The notes under the pieces were generated by a model. It was not told the origin of the DNA and searched no databases. It was given only the letters and a program-made list of their open reading frames with translations. Both the position numbers and the translations under genes were made by a program. Below, piece after piece: positions 4,050 through 38,454 of a stretch of 64,000 nucleotides of DNA (its first letter is position 1; each line of letters starts with the position of its first letter). Origin of the DNA: an uncultured cyanobacterium (lineage in GTDB: Bacteria; Cyanobacteriota; Cyanobacteriia; Cyanobacteriales; Geitlerinemataceae); NCBI GenBank assembly GCA_937121005.1, contig CAKZKB010000529.1:48784-112783 (forward strand), read 5' to 3'.

Positions 4050-7000
4050 ATGGGGCAAACTTTAGCGATGCGAGCCATGAAGGGCGATCGAGGGGCGATC
4101 GGATGGATAGGAGCGGCGGTGCTGGTCTGGAGCGCACCGTTTCCGGTCGTGGCGCAGGTGATTCCCGATACGACGTTGCCTAGCGATTCGGTTGTGAATG
4201 TGGATGGTGCGACCTTCGTGATTGATGGGGGAACGGCAGCCAACGGCAATTTATTTCACAGTTTCGAGGAGTTTTCCGTGCCGACGGGAGGCGCAGCGTT
4301 GTTCAATAATGCAGTGGGAATTGAGAATATTTTCAGTCGCGTTACGGGGAGTTCGATTTCAGAGATCGATGGTGTTTTAGGAGCCAATGGAACGGCGAAT
4401 CTGTTTTTCTTGAACCCGAACGGGATTGTATTCGGGCCGAATGCACGGTTGGAGTTAGGCGGTTCGTTTGTGGCTTCGACGGCCGATAGCGTGGTATTTG
4501 ACAATGGGTTTGAGTTTAGTGCTAGCAATCCCCAGGTTGAGTCGTTATTGGCTGTGGATATGCCCATGGGGTTGCAATTTCGAGACAATCCGGGGGATAT
4601 CGTCGTTCGGGGTGAAGGAACGAACTTTCCCCCAACTGTTGAAGGAGAAACCCCAGAACAGACAATCGATCTCATAATCCAGTCTCAAACTGAATTTCTC
4701 AATAACTCAGTGGGATTGCGCGTTGAAACTGGAGAAACCCTGGCCTTAGTGGGTGGCCATATTGATTTAGATGGGGGAATTCTCAAAACGCCATCGGGAC
4801 GAATTGAATTGGGAAGTGTGGGGTCAGGAGAGGAAGTTGCCATTGAGTCCCTGAACCGAGGCTGGCAACTCGACTACACGGGAGTAGCCAGTTTTCGAGA
4901 TCTATCCTTAAGCCAGGAAGCTGGTGTGACGGCTAGTGGTGAAGGGGGAGGGGAAATTCGGATCCGAGGTGGGAGCGTTACCCTCAGTGGAAACACTTTA
5001 ATTGTTGCCGATACCCTAGGAACTGGAGACGGAAGCGGTATCGATCTAACGGTGGGACAGTTGAGTGTTCGTGAAGGGTCAAGGATTACGGCGGGCACAG
5101 TGCGAGAGGGGAATGCCGGCGATGTCAGCATCCTCGCCAGTACAGTAGAAGTCCTCGATGGAGCTCAGTTGTCTACCTTTACCTTGGGCAGGGGGGATGG
5201 AGGAACGGTGACGGTAGAAGCCACTGATACTATCCTCTTCTCTGGGACGAACCTTGATGGGTTTAGTAGTAGTAGTGGTGCGTTCAGTCGCGTGGAACCA
5301 GGGGGGGAAGGGAATGCGGGTGGTCTCAGCATCGTCGCCAATTCGGTAGAAGTCCTCAATGGAGCTCAGTTGTCTTCGAGTACCAATGGCATGGGGGATG
5401 GGGGAACGGTGAGGGTAGAAGCTACTGACACCATCCTCTTCTCAGGTACAAACCCTGATGGGTTTCCTAGTGGTGCGTTCAGCCGAGTGAACTCAGGGGG
5501 GGGAAGGGAATGCGGGTGGTCTCAGCATCGTTGCTAGTACAGTAGAAGTGCGCGATGGAGCATTTTTGTCTTCGAGTACCAATGGCATGGGTGATGCAGG
5601 GATGGTGACGATAGAAGCCACTGAGAACATCCTTTTCTCGGGCACAAACCCTAATGGGTTTGCTAGTGGTGCGGTCAGCGACGTAAACCCAGGAGGGAAA
5701 GGGAATGCGGGTGGTCTCAGCATCGTTGCTAGTACAGTAGAAGTGCGCGATGGAGCATTTTTGTCTTCGAGTACCAATGGCATGGGTGATGCAGGGATGG
5801 TGACGATAGAAGCCACTGACACCATCCTTTTCTCAGGCACAAACCCTGATGGGTTTGGTAGTAGTGTCCTCAGTAACGTGAACTCAGAAGGGGAAGGGAA
5901 TGCGGGCGATATCAGCATCGTTGCCAGTACAATAGAAGTGCGCGATGGAGCTCAGTTATCTTCAAGTACTCGTGGTATGGGGAATGGGGGAGCGGTGAGG
6001 GTAGAAGCCACCGATACTATCCTCTTTTCAGGCACGGACGCTGATGGGTTTGGTAGTGGTGCGTTCAGCCAACTGAACTCAGGAGGGGAAGGGAATGCGG
6101 GCGATGTCAGCATCGTTGCTAGTACAGTAGAAGTGCGCGATGGAGCTCAGTTGTCTTCAAGTACTCGTGGTATGGGGAATGGGGGAGCGGTGAGGGTAGA
6201 AGCCACCGATACTATCCTCTTCTCGGGTAGTGGTGCGGTCAGCGACGTGAACCCAGGAGGGAAAGGGAATGCGGGCGATGTCAGCATCGTTGCTAGTACA
6301 GTAGAAGTGCGCGATGGGGCTGTGTTGTCTTCGAGAACCTTCGGCATGGGGAATGGAGGGATGGTGAGGGTAGAAGCCAGCGATACCATCCTCTTCTCGG
6401 GCACGGACGCTGATGGGTCGCCTAGTGGTGCGTTCAGTCGCGTGGAACCAGGAGGGGAAGGGAATGCGGGCGATGTCAGTCTTGTTGCCAGTACAGTAGA
6501 AGTTCGTGATGGAGCAGCGTTGTCTTCAGAAAATGTCGCTTCCTTCAATGCACCCGATCGCGAGTTTGGTAATAACTTCCGTGCTGGTAATCTGATCGTG
6601 CAAGCTGAATCGATTCAACTGACTGACGAAGCTGCCATCATTTCCAATACCCGAGGGCAAGGTGGCAACATCCAACTTAATTCGGGGACAATTATTTTAC
6701 GTCGCAACAGCAACGTCCGTACTAATGCAACGGGAACTTTCCCCGGTGGGAACATTACTATGGATACCGGTACGCTTGCTGCCCTGGAAAACAGCGACAT
6801 TACCGCCAATGCTACCAATGCAGCCGGGGGCAATGTCATTATCAATACGCAAGGAATTTTCGGCACAGAATTTCGCGAATTCGAGACCCCACAAAGTGAT
6901 ATTACTGCGACTGGAGCGACCCGAGAATTGCAAGGAACAGTTGAAATTAACACCCCCGATGTTGATAGTACCCAAGGCATTATCGAACTTCCCCAAACCG

Positions 7001-7368
7001 TCACCGATCCCAGAGAACTCCTCTCGCAAAATCCCTGCGTACAGGGTGCAGATAGCGAGTTTTCAGATATTGGAACGGGAGGATTTCCGGCGGGGCCGGA
7101 CGAACCGCCGACTCAGGCGGGGGTAGAAGCCAGTTGGATCGAATTCGACACGGACGATCGCCCCGAGCCCACGACAACCCTATCCTCCACAGAGTTTCTC
7201 GATCGACCCCAACCCATTGTCCCGGCGCGGGGGTGGAGACTCGACGACACCGGACGAGTCACTTTTACCGCCGACGATCGCGAAACGTCGGTAGAATTGC
7301 CCGTTTCCTCCACCATTTTCCATCGCCCCGATACCGCCTGTTCCCCGAGGTTCCGCTCCGGGCCATAA
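4050..7368 (+). pseudogene. TpsA1: filamentous-haemagglutinin-type two-partner-secretion exoprotein, split into ORFs 4050..5537 and 5548..7368 by a +1 frameshift in a G8 run
   Basis: The N-terminal TPS domain is present (NLFHSFEEFSV, ANLFFLNPNGIVFGPNARL). About 65-aa beta-helix repeats follow. Removing one G from 5496-5503 restores ...NSGGEGNAGGLSIVASTVEVRDGAFLSS... across the break. Confidence 0.85.
5100..6500 (+). repeat. Tandem ~195-bp (65-aa) coding repeats inside tpsA1
   Basis: The unit ...GNAGxxSIVASTVEVRDGAxLSSSTxGMGxGGxVxVEATDTILFSGTxxDGF... recurs about 7 times. Units starting at 5518 and 5713 share a perfect stretch of about 104 nt. Confidence 0.85.
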
Positions 7369-7369
7369 T
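7337..7369 (+). repeat. 33-bp direct repeat, copy A (3' end of tpsA1)
   Basis: CCTGTTCCCCGAGGTTCCGCTCCGGGCCATAAT matches 8309-8341 at 31 of 33 positions. Confidence 0.9.
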
Positions 7370-7391
7370 TGAGTTCGCGATCGCGCCTCAT

Positions 7392-7808
7392 CTACACTGC
7401 AACCAACGACTCCGAATTTTCCCAAGCGATCGTCCCTTCCAGTCCGCCCGATTCCGCAAAGGTTTTAGCCGCCAACAATGCCGTCTGCAAGCCCACACAG
7501 ATTTTAGCCGGAAACGTCCCCAATTGCCCGCCAACAACCCGTTTTTCCACGCCCGAAGAGCGATCGCCATCGACTGAATTATAAAACTCAACGTTATCAA
7601 AAGTGGCCGTGACAATATATTTACCGTCTTCACCGCCGCCAATGGACATATAAGTATCTTCGTCAACTCCCAACGTGACTAAAGTTCGGGTTTTGCCATC
7701 GAGTTGGCCAATTGCTGCTTCAATTTGTTGCCAATTTGGGTTCTCAATGAGATCTCCTTCATCTTTGTTGCCAACCCAGTTTTCAATAGATAAATCGACG
7801 ACAAACAT
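7392..7808 (-). CDS. Putative immunity protein (Imm1-like) of the adjacent deaminase module
   Basis: This 138-aa acidic cytoplasmic ORF starts where the deaminase frame stops (they share position 7808). NPNWQQIEAAIGQLDG...MSIGGGEDGKY resembles the W...GG signature of Imm1-type immunity proteins. Confidence 0.55.
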   Translation of the reverse strand: MFVVDLSIENWVGNKDEGDLIENPNWQQIEAAIGQLDGKTRTLVTLGVDEDTYMSIGGGEDGKYIVTATFDNVEFYNSVDGDRSSGVEKRVVGGQLGTFPAKICVGLQTALLAAKTFAESGGLEGTIAWENSESLVAV

Positions 7809-8230
7809 TACTTTCTCCTTGATTTGGGTGGTTTAACGGCGATCGCCTGGCTGCCACTCGGTGCGACAATTTCTAACTCTTCTATTCCCAATTGCCAAGC
7901 CATAGAATTAACGCCTCCGCGAACGCCACAAGCCGCACAAAGGTCGCGATCGACGATTAAACGAGCTCTGCTAGCGCTAATTCCTGCATCGGCCGCTTGC
8001 TGGAACGCATCCGCTTCAGCATGGGTTTTGGTAATCGGATTCACCTTAAATTTTATATCACGAAAATCAGGATTGCTGCCAGAATTGATACCGAAAAAAC
8101 TAAAACCGCCGATTTCCAGTTTGGCGATCGTGGCTCTATCCGCTTCGCTTCCAGCAGGAGGTAGATTGAGTTGCTGTCTGTACCGAGCGAGTTCGTCAAA
8201 ATGCTGTTCGTTTGTCCTCTCCTCCTCAGT
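7808..8230 (-). pseudogene. Start-less nucleic-acid deaminase toxin domain (the ORF track calls only 7808..8044 from a GTG)
   Basis: The frame is open from 8230: ...ATIAKLEIGGFSFFGINSG...VNPITKTHAEADAFQQA...DRDLCAACG. The zinc-binding H-A-E and C-x-x-C motifs of the deaminase fold are present. There is no ATG, GTG or TTG upstream of the GTG, which lies 7 codons before HAE. Confidence 0.6.
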
Positions 8231-8291
8231 CTATCGCTCTATTGTAGTGCGATCGCGTTACAATCCGATCGCGCCTCGCCGCACAAGAACC

Positions 8292-10172
8292 ATGCAAATG
8301 CCCCTTGACCTGTTCCCCGAGGTTCCGCTCCGATCCATAATAGGGTGTTTCCGTACTCTGGCAAAAACCGTGCATCCCACTCTGGCACTTCTCAGTTTAC
8401 CCGCAAGCCTTCTCCTGGTTTTCTCGAACCAGGCGATCGCCCAACTTCCCAACCCCAATACGCCGCCACCGCCCGATCGCCTTCCCACCGATTTTCCCGA
8501 TCGCTTCGACCCTGCTTTCGATACTGACATTTTCCCCGAACCTCCGGTTTCACCCGATTCCGAAGACTCCGATCGTCTAGAAATCGAGATCGAGGGGTTT
8601 GAATTTATCGGCAGTACCGTCTTCGATGAAGAAGATTTTACCGCCCTCAACGAACAATTGCAAGGGAGATTGCTCGGCGTTCCCATCACCTTCGATCGAC
8701 TCCTAGAAATTGAAGCGATCGTCGGCCAACTCTACCAAGCCGGTTGTGAAATACCCAACCCCTCCGAAACCGAGGATACGGAAAGCGACGGCGACTCTCA
8801 GTTGCGATCGCTGCTGCAACAACTCAATCCCGATGGCTGTTACATCAATTCGGGAGCCGTTCTCGTCGCCGGAGACGAATTCGATCTCGATACGGGGATT
8901 GTTCCTGTGCGAATTATTGAAGGTCGCGTTGAGGAAGGCGATCTCGATATCAAGATTGAAGGTCTCAGAGAGAATTATATTCGCAGCCGCCTGCAACGAG
9001 CCTTACAACCCCTCGATCGCAATGCTTTACTCGAAGCCTTACAATTGCTACAACTCGATCCGCGCATCGAAAGCATTTCCGCCCGACTTTCTGAAAGCGG
9101 ACGCTCCGATCGCGCCGCTCTCGATATTATCGTAGAAGTCGCCGATACTTTCAATACTCGCCTGTTTGCCGACAACGGACGCGCACCCACCGTCGGCACG
9201 TTTCGCCGAGGTGTCGAACTGAGCGACAACAACCTTTTTAATATCGGCGATCGTCTCAGTTTATCTTACACCAATACGGCGGGAAGTCACGCCGCCGATG
9301 GCAGTTATACCTTCCCCCTCAACTCCCGTAACGGAACCCTGAGACTGGCAGCAGGACTCACCGATACCGCAGTCATTGAAGAACCTTTCGATCGCGTGGA
9401 TATTGAAGGAAATTCCCGTTATTTCGAGTTGGGTGTGCGTCAACCTATCGTTCTCACCCCAAGCACAGAATTCGCCTTGGGGCTGACCGCTTCCCGCCAA
9501 GAAAGCGAAAGCACTCTGTTAGGAGATCCCTTTCCTTTATCCGCCGGAGCCAGCGACGATGGCGAAACTCGCATTTCCGCACTTCGCTTTTTTCAAGACT
9601 TTACTCGCCGCACTCGCAGCGATGTTTTTGCCTTGCGTTCTCAGTTGAGTTTGGGGTTAGGAGCCTTCGATGCTACAGTGAATAACGAGCGTCCAGATAG
9701 CGAGTTTTTCGCTTGGCGAGGACAAGCTCAGTACGTGCGTCGGTTGTCGGGAAGTACGCTACTTTTCTTGCGTTCCGACCTGCAATTTGCCAACGATGCC
9801 CTCATGCCATTAGAGCAGTTTGGCATTGGTGGCTTTCGCAGCGTTCGCGGCTACCGTCAAGATTCGTTGTTGACCGATAATGGCATTTTTACATCCGCCG
9901 AAGTGCAAATTCCGTTGTTAGAAATTGCTGACCTAGATGGACAGTTACAACTTGCCCCGTTTGTTGATTTTGGTGTAGGTTGGAACAATGCCGAGAGTGA
10001 GGATCCCGACCCCAATACTTTAATTGGTTTGGGGATTGGATTGCAGTGGCAAATGGGCGATCGCTTTTCGCTGCGCTTGGATTGGGGGATTCCTTTGACC
10101 GATGTAGAGTCCAACGATGAAACTCTACAAGAAAATGGGTTTTACTTCTCTGTAGACTACAACCCATTTTAG
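8292..10172 (+). CDS. TpsB: ShlB/FhaC/HecB-type outer-membrane transporter (POTRA plus beta-barrel)
   Basis: The ATG at 8292 (MQMPLD...) is followed by a signal peptide ending AIAQ. A POTRA-like region (IEIEGFEFIGSTVFDEEDF) follows. The C-terminal barrel ends in an aromatic residue (...FYFSVDYNPF). Confidence 0.85.
   Translation: MQMPLDLFPEVPLRSIIGCFRTLAKTVHPTLALLSLPASLLLVFSNQAIAQLPNPNTPPPPDRLPTDFPDRFDPAFDTDIFPEPPVSPDSEDSDRLEIEIEGFEFIGSTVFDEEDFTALNEQLQGRLLGVPITFDRLLEIEAIVGQLYQAGCEIPNPSETEDTESDGDSQLRSLLQQLNPDGCYINSGAVLVAGDEFDLDTGIVPVRIIEGRVEEGDLDIKIEGLRENYIRSRLQRALQPLDRNALLEALQLLQLDPRIESISARLSESGRSDRAALDIIVEVADTFNTRLFADNGRAPTVGTFRRGVELSDNNLFNIGDRLSLSYTNTAGSHAADGSYTFPLNSRNGTLRLAAGLTDTAVIEEPFDRVDIEGNSRYFELGVRQPIVLTPSTEFALGLTASRQESESTLLGDPFPLSAGASDDGETRISALRFFQDFTRRTRSDVFALRSQLSLGLGAFDATVNNERPDSEFFAWRGQAQYVRRLSGSTLLFLRSDLQFANDALMPLEQFGIGGFRSVRGYRQDSLLTDNGIFTSAEVQIPLLEIADLDGQLQLAPFVDFGVGWNNAESEDPDPNTLIGLGIGLQWQMGDRFSLRLDWGIPLTDVESNDETLQENGFYFSVDYNPF
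8309..8341 (+). repeat. 33-bp direct repeat, copy B (5' end of tpsB)
   Basis: CCTGTTCCCCGAGGTTCCGCTCCGATCCATAAT. See copy A at 7337-7369. Confidence 0.9.
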
Positions 10173-10182
10173 TTGCTTTGAC

Positions 10183-10842
10183 TCAAGCAAGGTTAGCAAT
10201 TTCGCTGTCGTTGATGACGATATAATCCCCTCGATAGTACCGTTCGGCGGCTGTTAGCATTCCGTTAACTAGCCAGCGATTGATGCCTGCGGAAACGGCT
10301 CCACCGAAAAATGGAATCCAGCCAACTCCGGCTTTTGCTGCCAATTTAGTGACAACTTTCGTAGCGGCTTTAGAAGCAGCTTTGGCGGCCAATTTACTGC
10401 CAAATTTTGAACTGCTTTTGAGAACGGCTTTCCCTACCAGTTTGCCCGCCATTTTTGCTGTCAATTTTCCCGACACTTTAATTCCCACTTTACCAACGGG
10501 AACGGTGACGGCGGTTTCTGCTAAGTCCGTCCACAACGCTAGAATCATATTCATGTCGCGATCGTAGTCTACTTCTCGCCCGAGAATATGTCCAATTCCG
10601 AAGCACCCCAAGGCTCCGACACGCCCGCAAAAGGCAATGTCAGGAATAATGGCAGCTAAACCAACCGGCCCGCCGATCGCTCCAGTTAAAGCCCCAGAAG
10701 CAATCACTTGAGCGAAGCATTCAAACCGCCATTCTTCTACAGTATAGTTCTTCATTTTGCGCTCTAAGGCGCGACGTTCTTGGGATGTACCGACGTTGCC
10801 CAAGTTTTTGAAGATTTCAGCGATGTTGTCTTGTACGCTCAT
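10183..10842 (-). CDS. Hypothetical protein with a Gly-rich hydrophobic core and a K/A-rich repeat segment
   Basis: It is a 219-aa ORF containing KLTAKMAGKLVGKAVLKSSSKFGSKLAAKAASKAATKVVTKLAAKAG. I recognise no family. Confidence 0.55.
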   Translation of the reverse strand: MSVQDNIAEIFKNLGNVGTSQERRALERKMKNYTVEEWRFECFAQVIASGALTGAIGGPVGLAAIIPDIAFCGRVGALGCFGIGHILGREVDYDRDMNMILALWTDLAETAVTVPVGKVGIKVSGKLTAKMAGKLVGKAVLKSSSKFGSKLAAKAASKAATKVVTKLAAKAGVGWIPFFGGAVSAGINRWLVNGMLTAAERYYRGDYIVINDSEIANLA

Positions 10843-10913
10843 GGTAGGGTCTCCGTGAAGTCTCGTTGTCTAGTCGGGAGCGATTTGAAAATTTATGCAG
10901 GGGACGAGAAAAT

Positions 10914-11114: not shown

Positions 11115-11377
11115 AGGATTGTTTTCCTTGTGTGCTTCACTGGGGTATCGGGAAAGGAACGAGAAATTATGCAGGTTGTCGGGGACGATCGCGGAAATTT
11201 CAGGGATGCTAACAAGCTCGATCGCTGTTCTGGTGAAGGTTTGAGCGAGCGAGGCTTTTACGGAAAGGCGATCTTGCGTATAATGAGATCGGTTATAATC
11301 CTTACAAGCGCTCCCATATATCCTCAAAATAGTGACACTCTAATCCCGAAAACTATCTGTGTCCATCCTATTTATCT

Positions 11378-12208
11378 GTGGTTGCAATGACTCAAAGCAC
11401 TGAAAAAATCGTTCTCCCCCCTCCCTTTCCCGACCACACTCAACTACCGGAGTCTGATGGTACGTTCGTGAAAAACTTTCAAGAACATCCCCAAAGCATT
11501 ATTCTCACCGATTCCATTACTCCGGTTTTAGATAGAGTTCATCCCGACGGACAATACGCGATCGGACAAGATTGCGGCATCTATTGGCGAGAAACGCAGC
11601 CACCGGAAGCGGGAGCGGTTGCCCCAGATTGGTTTTATGTCGGGAATGTCTCGCCGAATTTAGACGGAAAAGTTCGACGATCTTATGTGCTGTGGCGCGA
11701 ATTTATGTCGCCGTTAATTGCTTTAGAATTTTCCAGTGGAAATGGTGACGAGGAGCGAGACAAAACCCCGTTATCGCGATCGAACTTAGATCGAGGTCGC
11801 AAACCGGGCAAGTTTTGGGTCTACGAAAACATCATCAAAATTCCCTACTATGGCATTTTTGTCATCAGCACGGGGAAACTAGAAATGTATAATTTGGCCA
11901 ACGGATGTTCTTATCAGAAGATGGCTCCGAACAATCGCGGCCACTACCCAGTTCCCGCTTTGGGTGTAGAATTGGGATTATGGCAGGGAAGCTATCAGCA
12001 TCAGACGCAACTGTGGTTGCGATGGTGGGATAGCGAGGGAAACCTGTTGCTGACTGGGTGGGAGCAAAATCAGTTAAGTTTGCTCCATGTGGAACAACAA
12101 CGAGAGCGAGCCGATCGCGAACAGCAACGGGCCGATCGCCAACAACAGCGAGCGGAGCAACTGGCCGCCCGCTTGCAAGAACTGGGTATCGATCCGGACG
12201 CGATATGA
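11378..12208 (+). CDS. Uma2-family (DUF820) putative endonuclease with a C-terminal Q/R-rich coiled coil
   Basis: LPESDGTFV, APDWFYV and PLIALEFSS motifs are present. The tail reads EQQRERADREQQRADRQQQRAEQLAARLQELGIDP. Confidence 0.8.
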   Translation: MVAMTQSTEKIVLPPPFPDHTQLPESDGTFVKNFQEHPQSIILTDSITPVLDRVHPDGQYAIGQDCGIYWRETQPPEAGAVAPDWFYVGNVSPNLDGKVRRSYVLWREFMSPLIALEFSSGNGDEERDKTPLSRSNLDRGRKPGKFWVYENIIKIPYYGIFVISTGKLEMYNLANGCSYQKMAPNNRGHYPVPALGVELGLWQGSYQHQTQLWLRWWDSEGNLLLTGWEQNQLSLLHVEQQRERADREQQRADRQQQRAEQLAARLQELGIDPDAI

Positions 12209-21886: not shown

Positions 21887-23341
21887 TTAAATCAAGAAAT
21901 ATTCCTCCACAACGTTGACTTCATTCAAAGAGACGATCGCTTGGAAGCGAGTCCCCGGTTTGCCTTGGAAGCGGATTTGTAGGAGTTCGCTGTTTTCCCC
22001 ATTGTCAAGAAGAGATTGTGCGGTTTTGGTTTTCCCGGATTCCGATGCGATCGTTACACTCAACCCAGGTGGAAGTTGGGGACGATCGTCTATCGCTCGC
22101 ACTTGAATCCAGACTCCTACTTTATCATCTACTCGTGGCATCAGGTAAACTGCCATAGCGAGGTGACGACGAGAAAGCTCCATTTCAAGCTCGATTGCTT
22201 TTGCCCGCCGAACGCTAGCTGCGGGATGGTTGGGGGCTAACTGTTCTAAACTGAATGCAGCTTCCCAGCGAGTTTCCTCATCTTCAGCCGTGCGAGCGAT
22301 ACGGCTCAAAAGCTCGATGGCTTCTGCACTTTCGGCTCCGATTTCACCGAGGACGCGGATTGCATTGCGACAACTTTCTTCTTGTCCCGGTCGATCTAAA
22401 GTGTTTTGGATGTGTTGGCTGAGATCGGCAACAGTAATGGGATTGCTCTTGAGATGGGGAGTGCTAGGCCCTCCTCGAACGCCTAGAACCGTTACCGGAT
22501 AATTGGCTGCCAACTCTTCTAAAGTTTGCCATCCTTCTACAGCGCGATCGATAAACCACTGACTCAAACGCATGACACCGAGAGATTCTGGTTCGGGAGT
22601 TCCTTGTGGTTCCACGCGCAACTGATAGAGTCGCTGCCTTAAATTCTGATTGGAAAAGAAGGCCGCCCATTGGGGAAACGGAACGTCTAATCGCGGCGAT
22701 TCCTCCATATTTTGACACAGAGTACCTAATAATTGCTCGGCTTCGGTTGCAGACAGTTGAGGGATAGGCAAAATATCTGGTAGAGGTTCAGGACAAAGTT
22801 CCAGGGAGACCCAGAGAGCGCTGAGATCGTCCATTGCCGCATCCCTATCTAAAACATAAGTGCGATCGAGAGCATTATACTCCCCTTCCTGTTTCAGTTG
22901 AGCGTGAGTTGTAAATCCCCAAGCTCTGAGAACGCCATCTTCAGGTAAAATTTGAACGGCGACGTAGTAGCTAGCAGCAAGTCCAGGAATGTCAACCCAT
23001 TCTTGGGGAACGTACAAGGCTTCCGTTTCAATGGTCATCTGTGGAATTAAGGCGATGCGGCGATCGTTGGCAATAATAATGCTGCCATTAACAAATTCCC
23101 ACAGAGATGATGTCAGGGATTCCCCTAGCCATATAGAAGGAGATTCGGGCAATTCTGAATCTTCGTCGCTCCAAGCCTCAATTAGCGCTCTTAAGGTTAA
23201 TTGATTGAGATAAGCATTCCAACAAGAATCGGCGTTGGAATATCCTTGAGATGCCGTCCACACTTGTTGGCAATCGGCTTCGCTTAGCGGTAAGCAAAGT
23301 TGGTGAGGATAAGTGAGTTGTAGTTCGTCAAGTCGCTGCAT
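21887..23341 (-). CDS. DUF1822-family protein
   Basis: It is a 484-aa ORF with the cyanobacterial DUF1822 architecture. Its C-terminal beta-rich end is ...VGVWIQVRAIDDRPQLPPGL...IVSLNEVNVVEEYFLI. Confidence 0.65.
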   Translation of the reverse strand: MQRLDELQLTYPHQLCLPLSEADCQQVWTASQGYSNADSCWNAYLNQLTLRALIEAWSDEDSELPESPSIWLGESLTSSLWEFVNGSIIIANDRRIALIPQMTIETEALYVPQEWVDIPGLAASYYVAVQILPEDGVLRAWGFTTHAQLKQEGEYNALDRTYVLDRDAAMDDLSALWVSLELCPEPLPDILPIPQLSATEAEQLLGTLCQNMEESPRLDVPFPQWAAFFSNQNLRQRLYQLRVEPQGTPEPESLGVMRLSQWFIDRAVEGWQTLEELAANYPVTVLGVRGGPSTPHLKSNPITVADLSQHIQNTLDRPGQEESCRNAIRVLGEIGAESAEAIELLSRIARTAEDEETRWEAAFSLEQLAPNHPAASVRRAKAIELEMELSRRHLAMAVYLMPRVDDKVGVWIQVRAIDDRPQLPPGLSVTIASESGKTKTAQSLLDNGENSELLQIRFQGKPGTRFQAIVSLNEVNVVEEYFLI

Positions 23342-23363
23342 GGTGTTTACTCCTTTGTTTGTT

Positions 23364-25187
23364 TTAGGTTAGTGCGTTCAACCGAACGGTTGACAGCCAA
23401 GACGTAACTTGTTTGGGAAAGGCTTTTTTAGATGCAGGTAATCCATCTAAATCGCAGTCGAACCCCGATTTTTGAAGCTCGCCTTGGTAAACCTGTTGTA
23501 GGTCGCGTGCTAGCTGCTGTTCGATCCGTTTGAGTCGCTGGCGACTATCTTTTGGAGATTGCGAGAACTCTTTCGAGATCGTCTCAATCGCTAACTTTTC
23601 TTGTTCGCCACATTCCCATAATATCGCATCCCAACGCTTTAGCCACCCAACTTCAGGTTGAAAATTTTCCTGAAGTAGTATTTTGAGATGTTCCCAAACT
23701 TCTTCTTTGAGGACATCTTCGATAGTCTGAGCGTGCAGAGGTGCTAAGTAGCGACCAATGAGTTCCGTTGTCAGTGTTAAGTTGAGCGTCTGTTGCATAT
23801 GAGTAACAAAATCTTTCAAAAGGCGTTTTTTGATCTTTTGTTTTTCTCTGGAAACTTGATACTGCTCTAAACCTACAATTATTCCGACATCAGTTTGCGT
23901 TAGCCCGATACCTACTTCTAGCTTAAGAATCCATCGATCTATCGTGGGTGAAATTTCAATTTGCGAACGCACAAATAAGCGAAGTGCTGATGGCGCAACA
24001 TCACCGATCGCTTCTTGGTAATCTTGAGGATCCATAGGCTGGATAGGACTTTCTAAGTCTGCCTGTTCGATATCCGTTGCAGTTTCCATGATTCGATCCT
24101 TGTTTCGTACAGAATCGGCGCAAGTCTCGAGGTATTCCTGGACGCGATCGCCATCTAGTTCGGGCACAATTTCAGGATACGGACGCTGGCGGTTGTAGCG
24201 ATCGGCGATCTTTTGTAGTTCGCCATCGGTAGGCGGCCAGGGGTGTCGTTTGATTTTGGGCGGCTCTTGTCCTCCCCGATTGACAACGACTTTACAATAG
24301 ATATTCCATACTAGAATATACTGAAAATGTTGGGAGGTTTGCTCGACAATTTCTTGTAAGTCATGAAGTCGATCTCGGACTCGCTCTTCGCTTAAAGAAA
24401 TCGAAGATGTTTTCTGATTGTAATTCTTCTCAATGGAAGATATCTTTTTTTTATTTTCTTTTTTTTTGCACAGCTTTTGAATCGAGATACTAGGATCTAT
24501 ATTCCCGTTCTCCACATTCTCCTTGTAAGATTGGGAAATTTGTAAATCTGCTTCAACTGGATTTGATTTTGATTCGATCCGTCTTAAAAGATCGCAGAGT
24601 TCAGTTTCTGAAACCATTAACAAGTTAACCTTGAATACGCCATTAGACTCTAGAGCATCCTCCAATGCTTTTTGTCCGGTCATTTTGAGAAGCCTGCCCT
24701 TTGTATATTTGCATTTTTCATCGCCAACTCGCAATGACTCTTTAGTTAAATTTTCTAGTTGGTAACTTGCCCAGGTTGTTAGTTTACTTTTTGACGGATT
24801 GTGTTTTTTCAAAATTTTCAGCAAATTCTTAACCAGCACTTCGCTGACAATCGAAAAAGCCTCTCGTTGAGTGAGTTCGGTGAGATGAGCTTCCGCGCCC
24901 CTCAAACCTTTGATTTTTGTGCTTGCTCGGTAACAGGCTTCTTGTAAGTAGGAAACTAAATGCAACTTTGCGAATCGATCTCCAGGATCGGTTCGCAAAG
25001 TTAAACGGAACTCCCAGACCCATTCATTTTCGCTTTTGGTTATTGGGATTGCAGTTTCCTCCTCAACTCGTTGCTGTATATGTCGTCGAGCTTCTGGATC
25101 GATCGTCCATTTGACCGATCCGTTCTCTTCGATCTTGATAAAGGAAGAGAATTTTTCCAATAGGGTGGTTCGCTGGCGAAGTGGCAT
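23364..25187 (-). CDS. Atypical sigma-70-like / HTH protein (607 aa)
   Basis: A region-2-like segment (LVSYLQEACYRAS...KLTTWASYQLENLTKESLR) is present. A C-terminal region-4-like HTH (TQTDVGIIVGLEQYQVSREKQKIKKRL) is also present. The assignment is by eye only. Confidence 0.45.
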   Translation of the reverse strand: MPLRQRTTLLEKFSSFIKIEENGSVKWTIDPEARRHIQQRVEEETAIPITKSENEWVWEFRLTLRTDPGDRFAKLHLVSYLQEACYRASTKIKGLRGAEAHLTELTQREAFSIVSEVLVKNLLKILKKHNPSKSKLTTWASYQLENLTKESLRVGDEKCKYTKGRLLKMTGQKALEDALESNGVFKVNLLMVSETELCDLLRRIESKSNPVEADLQISQSYKENVENGNIDPSISIQKLCKKKENKKKISSIEKNYNQKTSSISLSEERVRDRLHDLQEIVEQTSQHFQYILVWNIYCKVVVNRGGQEPPKIKRHPWPPTDGELQKIADRYNRQRPYPEIVPELDGDRVQEYLETCADSVRNKDRIMETATDIEQADLESPIQPMDPQDYQEAIGDVAPSALRLFVRSQIEISPTIDRWILKLEVGIGLTQTDVGIIVGLEQYQVSREKQKIKKRLLKDFVTHMQQTLNLTLTTELIGRYLAPLHAQTIEDVLKEEVWEHLKILLQENFQPEVGWLKRWDAILWECGEQEKLAIETISKEFSQSPKDSRQRLKRIEQQLARDLQQVYQGELQKSGFDCDLDGLPASKKAFPKQVTSWLSTVRLNALT

Positions 25188-25336
25188 CAGTAAAACCTCC
25201 GGGATTGAGAAATAAGGTGGGTAGATAGTTGTCTCATGGGGGGCCGTTTAAAATTCCTGAATTAGAACTACTCACTTGTCGGGAGCATTCTGAATTATTA
25301 TGCACTTTCAAGGAAACTATTAACCAATATTTGTAT

Positions 25337-25600
25337 TTAAATAACAAAGGCTTCCGTCAAACTGACCTCCCCCAAAGCAACTTGGACGCTAAAATGTTCC
25401 CCTAGCGTACCGCTAAACTCCAACTGAATGTTTTTGCTTTCGCGGGCGATGGCCTGCATGACCGCTTCGCAAGCCTCATCGAGAACCGCTAACCGTAGAT
25501 TATAAGGCAAGCACTCGCATCCATTCGTAGGATGGACTTGTACCCAAATATCCATTTCGTTCGGGTCGATCGCGGGTTGGAGTCCCACCAGCAGAGCCAA
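25337..25600 (-). pseudogene. DUF1822 C-terminal fragment (remnant or duplicated piece)
   Basis: LALLVGLQPAIDPNEMDIWVQVHPTNG...FSVQVALGEVSLTEAFVI parallels the last ~90 aa of the DUF1822 protein at 21887..23341. Confidence 0.5.
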
Positions 25601-25787
25601 GTGATGGCCCGCACTGGCCAGATCGAGACGCTTGCGGCACTGTACGCTGCTGCCACCTCTAAAGCGTGAAGTAACCTCGATCGGTTCCCAATGAGGAGTA
25701 TTGGCCCCTTAAAGCCAGGGACTCAGACGAACGGGACTCGAATGTAAAGAGGGGGGAGTCAGGGACATTATCGATAACTGGCGATCG

Positions 25788-28700
25788 ATGCCAGTGTTGA
25801 GGATCCGCTTCTATCCTTCTATCTGTCGGAAGGGGCAGTTTTTACGGCGATCGCCCTGGTTGTTAACAAAAATTAACCTCAGTGAGAATGCCAGATGTCT
25901 GCTTGGTGTCTGGAGATGCAGGAGTAGGGGTCTGTTAGGGATATTCGGTAGCTGGCTGTCGATGGCCCCTCGCGCTTCGGCACAACTGGTTCCCGATGGA
26001 ACGTTGGGGCCAGAAAGCTCTATCGTGGTTCCGGCTGTGGAAATTAACGGCACGGACAGCGATCGCATCGATGGCGGTGCGCTACGCGGTGGCAATTTAT
26101 TTCATAGCTTTGAGGAGTTTAACATCGACAATGGCAGAGGCGCTTACTTTACCAATCCCCCAGGAGTTGAAAATATTCTCACTCGCGTCACGGGTAACAA
26201 TCCCTCGAATCTTCTCGGGACGCTGGGCATTCTCGGCGATGCAGATTTGTTTTTTATCAATCCCAATGGCATTGTTTTCGGGACGAATGCTCGCTTAGAT
26301 TTGGGAGGATCCTTTTTAGCCTCGACAGCAGATAGCTTTGTATTCGATAGTGGATTTGAGTTTAGTTCCAGTAATCTGCAAGCACCGCCATTGTTGATAA
26401 CAGACTTACCCATCGGTTTGCGGTTTCGAGACAATCCGGGGAGTATTATCAATCGATCGCAACCCGGTTTAGCATTAGAGCCGGGGAACAGTTTCGCTTT
26501 CGTCGGTGGCGATCTGTTGTTTGACAATGGAGGAGCGATCGTACCGGGAGGCGCGATCGCACTTGCCAGTCTCGTATCGGGAGAAGTTGGGATCGATATC
26601 GCTGATGGTAGAATCGCGATCGCGGATTTTGATGTCTTGAATGCTGGCAATATTTCTTTTTCGGGTGATGCGATCGTCAGTAGTAGTGGCGATCGTAGTG
26701 GTACAATTCACATTCGCGGTGGAGATGTGAGATTGCGCGATCGATCTCGGATTGAGTCGGTGACGCAAAATGAAAATGGCGGCGATATTGTTGTTGAGTC
26801 TAACAATTTATCTTTGCGGCAGCGATCGGTCATTTTAACGGGAACGGAAGGTGCAGGAAATGGTGGGAATTTGACGATTGATGGTCGTAACGCGATCGAT
26901 CTGATTGGTATGGGAGAAACATTGGATTTTGTTGAAAATATACTGCTGTTGGTTTTCCAGCTTTCAGATCTTGGCAATTCAACAGACAACATCGATCTGG
27001 ACACAATAGGTGTCAACTTGAACGCGATTGGTAGTTTTGATAGTGGTCTATATTCTGTCACAGTTGCGAGTGGTGAGGGAGGCGATTTAAGCATTCAAAC
27101 TCCGGACTTGAATATTCGCGATAGTATGATGGTGGGAGCATTCACGATTCTAGGAAGTGGTAGAGGAGGAGATATTTCTCTTCTTGTCCCTGGATACATT
27201 AGAATCATAGGTAACGCAGAAGAATTTTCAGCGAATTTTTTCAGTACAAGTATCTTAAGAACTCAAGAAGTCAATGAGGTGAGAAATGACTTATTAGCTG
27301 CGATTAGCGCAGGTGTATTCTCTGTAAATTTAGGAAGTCACGCTAATTCAGGAGATTCTACGATCGTAAGTGAAGTGTTGATCGTGCAAAAGGGTAGTTC
27401 TATTGCAAATTTTTCCATCTTTGGTGTAGGAGACACTGGCGATTTAAATATTCACCTGACAGAGGAATTAGACCTTGAGTATAGAACTAATGTAATTAGT
27501 TTAGCTTTTGGTGCGGCAGACGCTGGCAATGTACAGATATCGGCTCCCCAAATTAGCCTAATAGCCAGATCCGACATTGGAACGGGTACAGTTGGATCTG
27601 GAAATGCAGGAAATGTTAATATTATAACAGATCGCCTGTTAGTAGGTAGTAATTCTATCGTATCCGGTTCAGCAAGCATTAATATTGTAGAAAATGATAT
27701 GTTAGTATTAGGAAGCGAGTCTGCGGGGTCTTTAACGATCAGTGCAGCAGACTCGATTGAACTTATTGATAAAGGATCTTTGTTTGCTCAAAGTCGTGGC
27801 GAATCTGATGCTGGAAATATCACTATTAACACTCAACGCTTCGTTATTCAAGCTGGAGGTAGCACTCAAGGGGGAATTTCCACTGCAACACTTGGGCCAG
27901 GAGTGGGAGGGAACGTAACGATTAATGCTACAGAGTCAGTAGAATTTATTGGTTTTATTGACGATCGAGTTCCTAAACTTCCTTTTGCATTAGAAAATAT
28001 TCTGCAACTTTTGAGTGAAGAGCGTCAAAGGTTTATAGGAATTGCTACGGTTTCCTTGACCGGCGGAGATGGGGGAGATGTTACTATTAACACTAGGCGA
28101 CTTGAAGTTCGCGATCGTGCAGGTATTGTCACATCAACTTTGGGAACTGGAAGAAGCGGTCAAATAATAGTTAATGCTGAAGAAAGTATCCTTATTGATG
28201 GTACTTCTGCATTAGCAACCCTAACTTTGGGAGAAGGCGAAGCTGGAGAGCTAAGTTTAACGACTGAAACTTTGGAATTAGTGAATGGCGGATTAATTTC
28301 TGTAGATACACTTTTTGTTGAAAATCTTGCTATTGTTATCGATTTAGTTAATAATTTCCGTCAATCGTTCGACCCTGGACGTGTAGGAGCAGGTAACGCT
28401 AGTGATATTACAATTATAGCCGATCGCGTTGAATTATCTGGAGGCGCACGCATTAGTGCAGCGACAGGTAATAACACAACGGGAGTGGGGGGAACGGTTA
28501 CGATCGTCGCTCGAGATAGTGTTGACATTACTGGAGACTCTATCAATGCTAACATTTCTAGCAATATTTCTGCGGAAACCAACGGAGCGGGTAATGCAGG
28601 AAACCTAGTTTTACAAACATCGTCGTTTTCGATTCGAGATGGTGGTAGAATTATCGTCAGTGGAACGAGTAGCGGGAGTGCAGGCAATATCGACATTGAT

Positions 28701-29525
28701 GCGGACTCAACCCGCTTGGATCGAGGAACGATCGCTTCCGAAACGCGATCGGGACAGGGAAATATCAACCTGCGATCGCAGGATTTAGTCATGAACGATC
28801 GTAGCAACATTACCACCAATGCGTTTGCAGATGCCCCCAGTGGTAATATCAACATCGATACGGGAGTCTTAGTTGGAATCGACAATAGCGACATTACCAC
28901 CAACGCCGAACGCGGTCAGGCGGGGCAAATTCAAGTGACTGCTGATGGTATTTTGGGGATTCGACTGCGAACTCGTAGCGAACTGCAACAACTATTGGGA
29001 TCTGAAAACCTTTCAGTCGTTAGTCCCAACTTTCTCGATACCAGCGACATCACCGCCATATCAGTCCAAGACGCACAACTCGACGGACAAACGATTTTCA
29101 ATACTCCCGATGTTGACAGCACCGAAGGGATTCTCGAACTGCCCGAAAACGTTGTCGATCCGAGCGAACTGGTGTCTCAAAACCCCTGTATTCAAGGAGG
29201 AAATAGCGAGTTTACCGATATCGGACGTGGTGGTTTGCCTGTTAACCCGGAAGAACTGGCAACGAGTAGCAATATAGAAGCTGAATGGATCGATCCGGTC
29301 GAACCCACAGAACCGCCATCTCCACCCGCAGCGATCGTCCTTGAAGATGAGGAAATAATTCCGGCTCGAGGGTGGGTGTTCTTTGAGGACGGTACGGTGA
29401 GGCTAACTTCTCACTTGACTCCAGAAACGCAGCCGATGGGGGGGAGTCGAGAAGCATCAAATGAAGCGGCCGCCCACTGCATAGGCAGCCGCTCGGTGTC
29501 TACTCTCGGACGTGAGGGCAGGTGA
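25788..29525 (+). CDS. TpsA3: filamentous-haemagglutinin-type TPS exoprotein (start codon uncertain)
   Basis: ASAQLVPDGTLG, NLFHSFEEFNI and DLFFINPNGIVFGTNARL are present. Beta-helix repeats follow. It carries the conserved C-terminal module FNTPDVDSTEGILELPE...NPC...IIPARGW. Confidence 0.85.
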   Translation: MPVLRIRFYPSICRKGQFLRRSPWLLTKINLSENARCLLGVWRCRSRGLLGIFGSWLSMAPRASAQLVPDGTLGPESSIVVPAVEINGTDSDRIDGGALRGGNLFHSFEEFNIDNGRGAYFTNPPGVENILTRVTGNNPSNLLGTLGILGDADLFFINPNGIVFGTNARLDLGGSFLASTADSFVFDSGFEFSSSNLQAPPLLITDLPIGLRFRDNPGSIINRSQPGLALEPGNSFAFVGGDLLFDNGGAIVPGGAIALASLVSGEVGIDIADGRIAIADFDVLNAGNISFSGDAIVSSSGDRSGTIHIRGGDVRLRDRSRIESVTQNENGGDIVVESNNLSLRQRSVILTGTEGAGNGGNLTIDGRNAIDLIGMGETLDFVENILLLVFQLSDLGNSTDNIDLDTIGVNLNAIGSFDSGLYSVTVASGEGGDLSIQTPDLNIRDSMMVGAFTILGSGRGGDISLLVPGYIRIIGNAEEFSANFFSTSILRTQEVNEVRNDLLAAISAGVFSVNLGSHANSGDSTIVSEVLIVQKGSSIANFSIFGVGDTGDLNIHLTEELDLEYRTNVISLAFGAADAGNVQISAPQISLIARSDIGTGTVGSGNAGNVNIITDRLLVGSNSIVSGSASINIVENDMLVLGSESAGSLTISAADSIELIDKGSLFAQSRGESDAGNITINTQRFVIQAGGSTQGGISTATLGPGVGGNVTINATESVEFIGFIDDRVPKLPFALENILQLLSEERQRFIGIATVSLTGGDGGDVTINTRRLEVRDRAGIVTSTLGTGRSGQIIVNAEESILIDGTSALATLTLGEGEAGELSLTTETLELVNGGLISVDTLFVENLAIVIDLVNNFRQSFDPGRVGAGNASDITIIADRVELSGGARISAATGNNTTGVGGTVTIVARDSVDITGDSINANISSNISAETNGAGNAGNLVLQTSSFSIRDGGRIIVSGTSSGSAGNIDIDADSTRLDRGTIASETRSGQGNINLRSQDLVMNDRSNITTNAFADAPSGNINIDTGVLVGIDNSDITTNAERGQAGQIQVTADGILGIRLRTRSELQQLLGSENLSVVSPNFLDTSDITAISVQDAQLDGQTIFNTPDVDSTEGILELPENVVDPSELVSQNPCIQGGNSEFTDIGRGGLPVNPEELATSSNIEAEWIDPVEPTEPPSPPAAIVLEDEEIIPARGWVFFEDGTVRLTSHLTPETQPMGGSREASNEAAAHCIGSRSVSTLGREGR

Positions 29526-29640
29526 TGGTTCCATCTTCGGTCTCTGTACTGCACGGCTCAGCCGCGATCGCCCCAGTAGCGGTGGCGGCGACGATGGCGG
29601 TGAGGAGTGCGAGGGCGACGAGGCGAAGGCTGTTGGTCAT
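29500..29640 (-). CDS. Small secreted Cys peptide (46 aa; below the ORF-track cutoff), paralogue of 10914..11114
   Basis: I translated it by hand: MTNSLRLVALALLTAIVAATATGAIAAEPCSTETEDGTITCPHVRE*. A GGAGGA sits 4 nt upstream of the ATG. It overlaps the tpsA3 3' end by 26 nt on the opposite strand. Confidence 0.4.
   Translation of the reverse strand: MTNSLRLVALALLTAIVAATATGAIAAEPCSTETEDGTITCPHVRE

Positions 29641-34094: not shown

Positions 34095-38454
<4,360 letters not shown>

Follow-up and report, generated by a model that had tools for sequence, protein, structure and literature searches.

Results

Gene content of the locus

The window analysed here, a stretch of 64,000 nucleotides from an uncultured cyanobacterium of the Geitlerinemataceae (metagenome-assembled contig CAKZKB010000529.1 of assembly GCA_937121005.1), contains a cluster in which genes for two-partner secretion (TPS) lie together with genes for a TPR-CHAT protease, a caspase-CHASE2 receptor, DUF928 and DUF1822 proteins and a sigma-like protein. 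We scanned the open reading frame (ORF) map of the window with Pfam and NCBIfam, and all gene families named in a preliminary description of this DNA were found where that description had placed them. The plus strand carries tpsA1, tpsB, tpsA2, the TPR-CHAT gene and tpsA3, and the minus strand an operon of the sigma-like, DUF1822, receptor and DUF928 genes:

4050-7368, plus strand: tpsA1, FhaB-type TPS exoprotein, 1105 residues once repaired (TPS domain PF05860, E 1e-63)
8292-10172, plus strand: tpsB, Omp85/ShlB-type outer-membrane transporter, 626 residues (ShlB, E 3e-29; Omp85, E 8e-17)
12250-15711, plus strand: tpsA2, TPS exoprotein, 1153 residues (TPS domain PF05860, E 2e-49)
15733-18585, plus strand: TPR-CHAT protease, 950 residues (CHAT, E 2e-43, and TPR)
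18582-19406, minus strand: DUF928 protein, 274 residues (DUF928, E 1e-34)
19396-21801 (longest ORF to 21879), minus strand: receptor, 801 residues from M27 (CHASE2, E 1e-58; CHAT, E 5e-9)
21887-23341, minus strand: DUF1822 protein, 484 residues, cytoplasmic (DUF1822, E 4e-70)
23364-25187, minus strand: divergent sigma-70 family protein, 607 residues (homologue profile and predicted structure)
25788-29525, plus strand: tpsA3, TPS exoprotein, ORF of 1245 residues (TPS domain PF05860, E 2e-44)

The three TpsA paralogues and the single TpsB of the preliminary description are borne out by Pfam and NCBIfam, with the caveat that tpsA1 is frameshifted. Its spacing of 21 nt between tpsA2 and the signal-peptide TPR-CHAT gene is exact, and the minus-strand operon is present as described, converging on the TPR-CHAT gene so that the stop codons of the DUF928 and TPR-CHAT genes overlap; at its other end the DUF928 gene overlaps the receptor gene by 11 nt. 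Genes identical to those of the window are present in JGI 3300022689 and ENA ERZ27249345. The HIP1 palindrome has a density of 1.1 per kb in the window, and the closest genome is a Baaleninema metagenome-assembled genome, whose DUF1822 protein is 60% identical to that of the window.

Conserved gene order and separable cassettes

Two sets of loci were compared with the window. The first was anchored on DUF1822 and drawn from one genome per GTDB species, the best 80 of more than 582 loci being kept, nearly all of them cyanobacterial; the second was anchored on TPR-CHAT and comprised 80 metagenome loci, which their HIP1 density marks as cyanobacterial. Genes were annotated by hidden Markov models (HMMs) iterated from the window proteins, part of the calls being spot-checked with Pfam, and the EACC2-like module was assigned via an HMM of residues 1-410 of the receptor in the window, not by a name match to a public EACC2 model.

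The gene set and its order recur in Nostocales, Oscillatoriales, Pleurocapsales/Chroococcales and Leptolyngbya-like cyanobacteria. The recurrent arrangement, sigma> DUF1822> caspase-CHASE2> DUF928> <TPR-CHAT <TpsB <TpsA, was seen in Baaleninema, Microcoleus, Tychonema, Tolypothrix, Argonema and others. The preliminary description had made co-occurrence of these families in other genomes the test of its idea; the cluster clearly passes this test, the association exceeding chance by far. At the DUF1822-anchored loci a sigma-like gene adjoins in 75 of 80 cases and an EACC2-caspase gene in 62 of 80. The C-terminal part of these EACC2-caspases is CHASE2 in about half; the others end in NACHT, nSTAND1 with GUN4, Peripla_BP_6, lectin, TPR or nothing. 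For receptors with at least 4.5 kb of downstream sequence (25 of CHASE2 type, 8 of other types) the genes found downstream were:

DUF928: 24 of 25 CHASE2-type receptors, 0 of 8 other receptors (Fisher p 6e-7)
TPR-CHAT: 18 of 25 CHASE2-type receptors, 2 of 8 other receptors (Fisher p 0.035)
TPS genes: 16 of 25 CHASE2-type receptors, 1 of 8 other receptors (Fisher p 0.017)

The loci anchored on TPR-CHAT gave a matching picture of the extracytoplasmic genes. In 27 of the 45 loci with room for one, the gene immediately upstream of TPR-CHAT encodes a TpsA or TpsB. DUF928 and CHASE2 occur together in 24 loci, DUF928 alone in 1 and CHASE2 alone in 3. Where there was room on both sides, 17 of 33 loci have TPS, DUF928 and CHASE2, seven have TPS only and five have neither. 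Most CHASE2 receptors of this set (26 of 35) are not of the caspase type, and ten of these non-caspase receptors, scanned with Pfam, carry AAA_35, Ser/Thr kinase, PP2C (SpoIIE) or histidine or hybrid kinase modules; their loci have no sigma or DUF1822 genes. The sigma/DUF1822/EACC2-caspase units, for their part, also occur with quite different sensors and without any TPS genes. Sigma factor and DUF1822, which the preliminary description had included in its circuit, are not constant members of the TPS/CHAT/DUF928/CHASE2 set but one of several interchangeable outputs. The pattern points to two cassettes: an extracytoplasmic sensor cassette of TpsA, TpsB, TPR-CHAT, DUF928 and the periplasmic CHASE2 domain that occurs with many outputs, and a cytoplasmic output cassette of EACC2-caspase module, DUF1822 and divergent sigma-70 protein that occurs with many sensors.

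Parts of the set are present in reference strains. Plasmid pCC7120alpha of Nostoc PCC 7120 encodes an FHA-N protein, DUF1822, sigma, CHASE2 and DUF928, with a CHAT gene about 12 kb away; pNPUN01 of N. punctiforme carries the CHASE2-DUF928-CHAT core, Picosynechococcus PCC 7003 has DUF1822, CHASE2, DUF928 and CHAT, and Gloeothece PCC 7424 has CHAT, DUF928 and CHASE2. The proteins of the PCC 7120 locus have the accessions WP_010999859, WP_010999860, WP_010999862, WP_010999863 and WP_323790861. When plasmids were searched by tblastn with the CHASE2 part, matches were found in cyanobacteria only, and two proteobacterial plasmid TpsB loci are ordinary TPS systems with no CHASE2 neighbour; neither approach yielded a counterpart of the linkage in proteobacteria.

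Several partners also occur as fused genes. CHAT, CHASE2 and DUF928 form a single, Pfam-confirmed ORF in Arthrospira platensis PCC 7345 (locus L032), where the former DUF928 signal peptide is a fifth transmembrane helix and DUF928 stays periplasmic. A TPS-TPR-CHAT ORF of 1618 residues in Oscillatoria PCC 10802 and a TPS-CHAT ORF in one metagenome locus were likewise confirmed with Pfam, and in one further locus a whole TpsA, including its C-terminal domain, is fused to TPR-CHAT. These fusions support a physical cooperation of the fused partners. With synteny and fusions combined, a functional linkage of the cluster genes is well supported and, in our judgement, highly probable. The circuit of the preliminary description is thus well supported as a functional unit, but its wiring needs correction.

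Two Oscillatoria loci show a variant that the model proposed below leaves unexplained: in L008 (3279-8135) and L011 (3298-8187) a TPS-TPR-CHAT fusion is divergent from a sigma-like/DUF1822 pair, and the HMMs detected no EACC2-caspase receptor within 10 kb downstream of that pair.

The receptor, the TPR-CHAT protease and DUF928

The start of the receptor at M27 is conserved, and the call of 801 residues is also made on other assemblies. A cytoplasmic part of about 400 residues with EACC2-like and caspase/CHAT modules is followed by a first transmembrane helix (TM1, residues 410-428), the periplasmic CHASE2 domain (PF05226, 199 bits) and three C-terminal transmembrane helices, and the protein ends about 15 residues past TM4. 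Whereas CHASE2 receptors generally carry their cytoplasmic output C-terminal of the last transmembrane helix, this receptor has no C-terminal output domain and its enzymatic module is N-terminal instead; N-terminal modules (AAA_35, Ser/Thr kinase) are also found in some related CHASE2 receptors of other loci. The caspase dyad H269/C312 is conserved in at least 90% of 36 sequences, and the transmembrane layout places the domain that bears it on the cytoplasmic side of the membrane, not in the periplasm.

TPR-CHAT has a cleavable-looking signal peptide, its N-terminus being hydrophobic in 91 of 94 orthologues, and because of this signal peptide the protease is probably periplasmic or exported. 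Its caspase-type dyad, H817/C864, is conserved in 32 orthologues. Of the periplasmic and membrane caspase-like proteases in the preliminary description, the signal peptide fits the former, but the receptor's CHAT/caspase domain faces the cytoplasm. PDB sequence searches with both CHAT proteins gave no match.

DUF928 also has a signal peptide (65 of 69 orthologues have a signal-peptide-like N-terminus) and two conserved cysteines, C93 and C193. Its N-terminal linker (19145-19289) contains a 67-nt tandem duplication of 85% identity that encodes EHPAFPPG(R/H)G.PGGIG.GAGTF twice and is missing from the orthologues. A 'GRG' motif common to the TpsA tail and the DUF928 N-terminus was considered as a cleavage site and rejected, as the DUF928 of the window lacks that arginine.

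DUF1822 and the sigma-like protein

The AlphaFold2 model of DUF1822 (pLDDT 78) consists of an alpha/beta N-domain, a disordered loop (residues 247-299), a set of HEAT-like helices and, at the C-terminus, a beta-sandwich. Such a layout, in which a disordered stretch connects two folded halves, would be suitable for an adaptor that is cut. A Foldseek search with this model found generic Ig-like sandwiches only, which, at the level of a predicted fold, speaks neither for nor against an anti-sigma role. We propose that DUF1822 is the partner of the sigma factor and the substrate of the caspase.

Taken alone, the sigma-like protein has no Pfam match and only a weak one to the NCBIfam sigma70-ECF model (E 6e-5, 22.7 bits against a cut-off of 42.9). 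Word-index homologue searches with this protein and with DUF928 returned the query alone; a full HMMER search with the sigma-like protein gave 177 relatives. A profile of 36 of the relatives matches regions 2 and 4 of FliA, SigF and SigA in the PDB (E 1e-10), the best matches being group-3 factors, and Sigma70_r4 is found in 25 and Sigma70_r2 in 5 of these 36 sequences. The AlphaFold2 model (pLDDT 83) agrees with this assignment, Foldseek matching it to sigma4 with a TM-score of 0.74-0.79 (root mean square deviation 1.3-1.4 Å) and to sigma2 with a TM-score of 0.66. Region 2 lies at about residues 77-160 and region 4 at about 400-458, with a low-complexity insert at about 190-300 between them and extensions at both ends, and PGAP labels the homologue in Nostoc PCC 7120 a sigma-70 family factor. 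Profile and predicted structure thus show that the sigma-70-like protein of the preliminary description is a genuine but divergent sigma-70 relative. We rejected its classification as a minimal ECF factor: whereas minimal group-4 (extracytoplasmic function, ECF) factors are about 200 residues long and contain sigma2 and sigma4 only, this family has 400-600 residues with conserved N- and C-terminal extensions.

Just 5' of the sigma gene, at about 25337-25600 on the minus strand, lies a relic of the C-terminal 100 or so residues of a second DUF1822 (HMM positions 376-472, E 6e-21), which points to the decay of a module that was once adjacent or had arisen by duplication. Loci L012, L036 and L083 contain DUF1822/caspase modules in tandem.

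The TPS proteins

All three TpsA proteins have signal-peptide-like N-termini, that of TpsA1 ending in ..VVAQ|VIPD, and TpsA1 and TpsA2 also match TIGR01901 (adhes_NPXG, NCBIfam) with 88 bits. Their overall identity is 33-41% (TpsA2 and TpsA3 share 37% over their full length), and judged by this divergence they are old paralogues. Identity is unevenly distributed, with 65-86% in the TPS core, 23-40% in the centre and 55-65% in the last 110 residues or so. This C-terminal domain is common to 44 TpsAs from other loci; two cysteines are conserved across 47 TpsAs, together with the motifs TGRGGLP and EAQGW. By analogy to other TpsAs, a disulfide-locked tail could act as a periplasmic stopper. A reading as contact-dependent inhibition (CdiA/CdiB/CdiI) was rejected, the C-termini being homologous across paralogues and genera with no polymorphic toxin tip, and none of the tpsA genes in the window is followed by a gene in immunity position.

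A +1 frameshift within a G8 run (5496-5503) splits tpsA1 into an ORF at 4050-5537 and another at 5548-7368, and removal of one G restores the single ORF of 1105 residues. The run sits inside one of seven tandem 195-nt (65-residue) beta-helix repeats (about 5098-6558, 71-98% nucleotide identity), and the preceding repeat copy has G7 there. No 495-residue product of tpsA1 is on record, and the contigs of other assemblies stop before the run; the frameshift may be a sequencing or assembly error, phase variation at a slippery tract in a surface-protein gene, or the mark of a pseudogene. The similarity of the repeats indicates a recent expansion; repeats in tpsA2 and tpsA3 are degenerate only.

The longest ORF of tpsB spans 7824-10172, but its start is likely at 8292, where gene callers place it on another assembly; the product then begins MQMPLDLF...SNQAIA and has a signal peptide. 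TpsB matches PF03865 with 102.8 bits (cut-off 22.7) and PF01103 with 62 bits. No POTRA model of Pfam matched at E <= 0.01, and the roughly 250 residues between signal peptide and barrel would leave room for the two periplasmic POTRA domains typical of a TpsB. From these assignments TpsB is predicted to export the TpsA proteins.

Upstream regions of the sigma and tpsA genes

Upstream regions in the window were compared by exact k-mers and by dyads (5-mer/gap/5-mer), and across loci by k-mer enrichment in 47 sigma and 49 to 53 TPS upstream regions. Apart from the HIP1 palindrome, these k-mer and dyad comparisons yielded a single motif, the sigma-specific GTGCATAAT, and none of bipartite form:

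25297-25305, minus strand: GTGCATAAT motif, 118 nt upstream of the sigma start codon (k-mer enrichment)

The motif GTGCATAAT is conserved at about -120 to -235 of sigma-like genes in distantly related cyanobacteria (L005, L047, L049, L050, L069, L075 and others). The upstream regions of tpsA genes gave no copy of it, and the motif may represent a -10-like element that precedes a long leader. As sigma and TPS upstream regions share no motif, the comparison gives no indication that the TPS genes are transcribed under this sigma factor, and the dedicated sigma factor for secretion that the preliminary description had assumed is left unsupported.

Insertions and neighbouring genes

The span of the cluster includes genes that are unrelated to it:

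7392-7808, minus strand: Imm1 polymorphic-toxin immunity gene in the tpsA1-tpsB segment (PF14430, 37.6 bits, cut-off 22.4)
10183-10842, minus strand: ORF of 219 residues, unrelated insertion
11169-12208, plus strand: small ORFs and an ORF of 273 residues, unrelated insertion

The segment of about 970 bp between tpsA1 and tpsB is bounded by a direct repeat of 33-38 nt (7337-7374 and 8309-8346). It looks like an insertion of an orphan immunity gene, since tpsA and tpsB overlap in related loci. The ORFs of 73 and 273 residues at 11169-12208 lie directly 5' of tpsA2 on the same strand, and neither has a Pfam match; relatives of the larger one occur in L022 and L066, away from TPS genes. Both are probably unrelated passengers.

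The neighbourhood is rich in defence genes, while none of the cluster proteins matches PADLOC defence models. Upstream, at 709-3002 on the minus strand, lie a DO-GTPase1/2 (Double-GTPase) gene, whose family has been assigned to NTP-dependent conflict systems, and a gene for its upstream partner of 398 residues without Pfam match. Downstream, an AAA_33 kinase-like protein with a WYL/WCX domain is encoded at 29917-31974; it was rejected as a cluster member, matching the CRISPR-associated WYL regulator of PADLOC and adjoining the type III-B CRISPR-Cas genes (Cmr2, Cmr3, RAMPs) at 34095-43245. With these CRISPR-Cas and WYL genes nearby, the TPS/CHASE2 cluster therefore lies in a defence-rich island. 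Further genes encode a STAND/NACHT-like NTPase of 1145 residues (48160-51597, minus strand), a TnpB/Cas12f-like protein with a TNB domain (52601-54109, minus strand), Cas1 (54590-55864) and a giant, probably secreted protein of 2270 residues (57136-63948) with DUF4114 and a weak leishmanolysin (Peptidase_M8) match.

Discussion

A proposed route from the cell surface to transcription

Gene content, topology, intact catalytic dyads, conserved synteny, modularity of the cassettes and gene fusions are directly established for this cluster, which is probably an envelope-to-gene signalling system and a new combination of known parts. We tentatively favour, at somewhat less than an even chance, the reading that the locus is the junction of two separable cassettes, a sensor and an output, within one conserved cyanobacterial envelope signalling system. 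CHASE2 is taken as the input domain because the variable cytoplasmic parts of the receptors are classical transmitter modules, and on the same grounds the constant secreted and periplasmic proteins are read as part of signal perception, on the input side of CHASE2.

The specific mechanism and the direction of signalling are our best guess, and we hold them with reserve. TpsA would be threaded through TpsB, and its C-terminal domain, probably disulfide-locked, would remain in the periplasm and tether the protein at the surface. A surface event would be relayed by the periplasmic TPR-CHAT, which would cleave or release the C-terminal domain of TpsA, DUF928 or both, and DUF928 would engage the CHASE2 domain directly, serving as its co-receptor or protein ligand. 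The activated receptor would turn on its own cytoplasmic caspase domain, which would cut DUF1822, an anti-sigma-like partner, so that the sigma factor is freed and transcription changes. In its most general form, the proposal makes cyanobacterial CHASE2 the receiver of a trans-envelope proteolytic relay and not a small-molecule receptor, with TpsA as antenna, TPR-CHAT as the protease that cleaves DUF928 or the TpsA tail, a ligand derived from DUF928 and, as interchangeable outputs, kinases, phosphatases, ATPases or a switch from caspase to sigma factor; we put this forward as a speculative and rather doubtful generalization, whose logic may be likened to that of Spaetzle and Toll.

Several points weigh against these proposals. 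We infer every protein-protein and protease-substrate step as well as the direction of the signal. The DUF1822 model has no known anti-sigma fold by Foldseek, and in the upstream regions compared no common motif connects the sigma factor with any gene of the cluster. Given the frameshift in tpsA1, this organism need not have every part in working order. No TPS gene lies within 12 kb of the core in N. punctiforme, Picosynechococcus PCC 7003 and Gloeothece PCC 7424; the tightest core is therefore CHASE2-DUF928-CHAT, with TPS as a frequent companion. Since TPR-CHAT is also found with TPS genes alone (7 of 33 loci), TpsA may not be the antenna but a substrate, or a partner that the system can do without. 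The comparison of loci has its own limits: the flanks extend over 10 kb, the domains were called by home-made HMMs partly checked with Pfam, and the loci, many from Microcoleus or Nostocales, are not phylogenetically independent, so that the uncorrected Fisher tests overstate significance, the TPR-CHAT and TPS contrasts reaching only about 0.02-0.04.

Alternative explanations

The alternative that survives best takes TpsA as the end product and has a precedent in Pseudomonas aeruginosa, where LapG, a cysteine protease of the periplasm, sets the TpsA adhesin CdrA free and is controlled by LapD in the inner membrane (PMC4694147). TpsA would be a surface fibre or adhesin that is held in TpsB by its C-terminal domain until the periplasmic TPR-CHAT cuts it loose. 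CHASE2 and DUF928 would retain the protease or let it go, in the manner of LapD towards LapG, and the cytoplasmic domains would tune the process or report on it in parallel. The 21-nt spacing of tpsA2 and TPR-CHAT, the TpsA or TpsB genes directly upstream of TPR-CHAT in 27 of 45 loci, the conserved C-terminal domain with its two cysteines and the TPS and TPR-CHAT pairs without CHASE2 (7 of 33 loci) all agree with such a release mechanism, and on this view both systems combine a TpsA and its TpsB exporter with a cysteine protease that acts on TpsA in the periplasm and with an inner-membrane protein, part of which is periplasmic. The cytoplasmic parts of the receptors, however, are transmitter modules and not second-messenger receivers, which argues for outside-in signalling; the CHASE2-DUF928-CHAT core also exists without nearby TPS genes, and the TPS-TPR-CHAT fusions would put the protease outside the cell, not in the periplasm. 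The likeness to the P. aeruginosa system is functional only, and no sequence homology was found: LapG has a transglutaminase-like fold instead of the CHAT/caspase fold, LapD is a c-di-GMP-binding GGDEF-EAL protein in place of a CHASE2 receptor with transmitter or caspase modules, and DUF928 has no counterpart there. We consider this explanation unlikely.

A role in conflict, cell death or kin discrimination appears distinctly unlikely. In that case the TpsA proteins would be contact-dependent effectors or toxins matured by CHAT, and the CHASE2-caspase-sigma arm would respond to attack with a defensive or suicidal programme. The genomic surroundings would suit it, with the DO-GTPase pair at 709-3002, Imm1 at 7392-7808, type III-B CRISPR-Cas at 34-43 kb, and the STAND NTPase (48160-51597) and Cas1 in the same neighbourhood; homologous loci are common on cyanobacterial plasmids, the centres of the TpsA paralogues diverge fast, sister EACC2-caspases carry NACHT/STAND modules, and Kaur et al. 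read EACC-caspase systems in the same way (PMC8195603). The C-termini of the TpsAs, however, are homologous among paralogues and genera, unlike the polymorphic tips of toxins. None of the tpsA genes has an immunity gene behind it, Imm1 being on the opposite strand within an insertion, no cluster protein matches PADLOC defence models, and the kinase and phosphatase outputs resemble ordinary signalling.

The remaining alternative of substance, close to the preliminary description, separates regulator and target: CHASE2 would sense an unrelated external small molecule and the sigma factor would only transcribe the neighbouring tpsA, tpsB and CHAT genes, which would then be its targets and lie outside the sensor. 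Control of adjacent genes is common among alternative sigma factors, and the layout allows for it, tpsA3 being divergent from the sigma operon and tpsA2 and TPR-CHAT convergent on it. Yet the upstream regions of tpsA and sigma genes have no motif in common, in the window or across loci; TPS, TPR-CHAT and DUF928 also accompany CHASE2 receptors with non-transcriptional outputs (Ser/Thr kinase, PP2C, AAA_35), the CHASE2-DUF928 fusion indicates a physical association in the periplasm, and sigma/DUF1822 units occur with other sensors without TPS genes. We regard this explanation as improbable.

That abundant CHAT, TPS and CHASE2 families, numerous in filamentous cyanobacteria, have merely piled up on an accessory island with insertions is extremely unlikely and already contradicted by the synteny and fusion data, since several orders share the same arrangement and orientation of the genes, DUF928 and CHASE2 form a nearly obligate pair, loci with other receptors provide an internal control and gene fusions of three kinds exist.

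Relation to known systems

Returning to the reading of two joined cassettes, we found only the output cassette described, and computationally only. Kaur, Iyer, Burroughs and Aravind (eLife 2021; PMC8195603) report EACC2-caspase systems whose further members are a sigma factor of ECF type and a 'TPR' protein with DUF1822, and they propose that activation of the caspase is coupled to this sigma factor. As in the window, these systems combine a constant N-terminal alpha+beta domain and caspase with a variable C-terminal part (here CHASE2 flanked by transmembrane helices), and sigma factor and DUF1822 are encoded alongside. By contrast, the passages that a term search found in this paper make no mention of DUF928, a signal-peptide TPR-CHAT or TPS genes, nor of an extracytoplasmic set that travels with CHASE2 whatever the output. 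The statement of the preliminary description that this gene set has no assigned function thus holds experimentally, but the part made up of ECF-like sigma, DUF1822 and EACC2-caspase-CHASE2 had already been described computationally.

A precedent for the proposed output logic is the type III-E Craspase, in which the TPR-CHAT protease Csx29 cleaves Csx30, a protein that binds the sigma factor RpoE (PMC9825189, PMC9729208). Craspase links a protease of the CHAT family genetically to a sigma factor, the connection being a partner that binds the sigma factor and is cleaved upon activation, as we propose for caspase, DUF1822 and sigma. The cluster differs in having no Cas7-11 (gRAMP), crRNA or Csx30, and its activator would be a membrane CHASE2 sensor; the TPR-CHAT of the window has a signal peptide and is distinct from the cytoplasmic caspase that would act on DUF1822, and the window's own CRISPR-Cas system is of type III-B (Cmr2, Cmr3) and lies 5-14 kb from the cluster.

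CHASE2 itself has been studied in Sinorhizobium meliloti, where the CHASE2 adenylate cyclases CyaK, CyaD1 and CyaD2 perceive a protein signal via the outer-membrane beta-barrel NsrA (PMC13001267, PMC7529298); this is the only experimentally studied CHASE2 pathway that our literature search found. It resembles our proposal as a trans-envelope relay to CHASE2 that needs an outer-membrane barrel protein, and differs in that its output is cAMP and that no DUF928, CHAT or TpsA is reported there. The C-terminal domain of the TpsAs, in turn, can be set beside FhaB/FhaC of Bordetella, where a C-terminal region of the large TpsA stays periplasmic and is removed by proteases during secretion or afterwards (PMC4542190, PMC6070651). 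There the prodomain comprises about 1200 residues and the proteases are serine proteases such as SphB1, whereas the TpsAs of the window end in a domain of about 110 residues that contains two cysteines, and the protease linked to them belongs to the CHAT family.

Both the proposed relay and two classical systems convert an envelope signal by proteolysis into the release of a sigma factor. In FecA/FecR/FecI and DegS/RseP/RseA/sigma-E, an envelope signal leads via proteolysis to a released alternative sigma factor. Their components are unrelated in sequence to those of the cluster, in which a caspase-fold protease is fused to the receptor and the proposed anti-sigma protein, DUF1822, is soluble and has no known anti-sigma fold. 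RseA is mentioned in the work on Craspase (PMC9825189).

Implications for CHASE2 signalling

For the large families of CHASE2, DUF928, DUF1822 and bacterial CHAT proteins, a function has been tested in almost no case. In the searchable literature, outside which subscription journals lie, DUF1822 is named by two papers and DUF928 by one, CHASE2 is nowhere linked to TPS, CHAT or DUF928, and no assigned ligand was found for this widespread bacterial sensor domain. The comparative data give CHASE2 candidate partners, namely DUF928 and a periplasmic caspase-like protease, often together with a type Vb secreted fibre, and they show the one sensor set combined with six or more kinds of cytoplasmic output. 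Since Nostoc PCC 7120, N. punctiforme and a strain of Picosynechococcus carry the locus, what CHASE2 senses can be approached by experiment. If the proposal is true, the cluster would be the second natural switch from a caspase-fold protease to a sigma factor, after Craspase, and the first two-partner secretion system that is hard-wired to an inner-membrane receptor.

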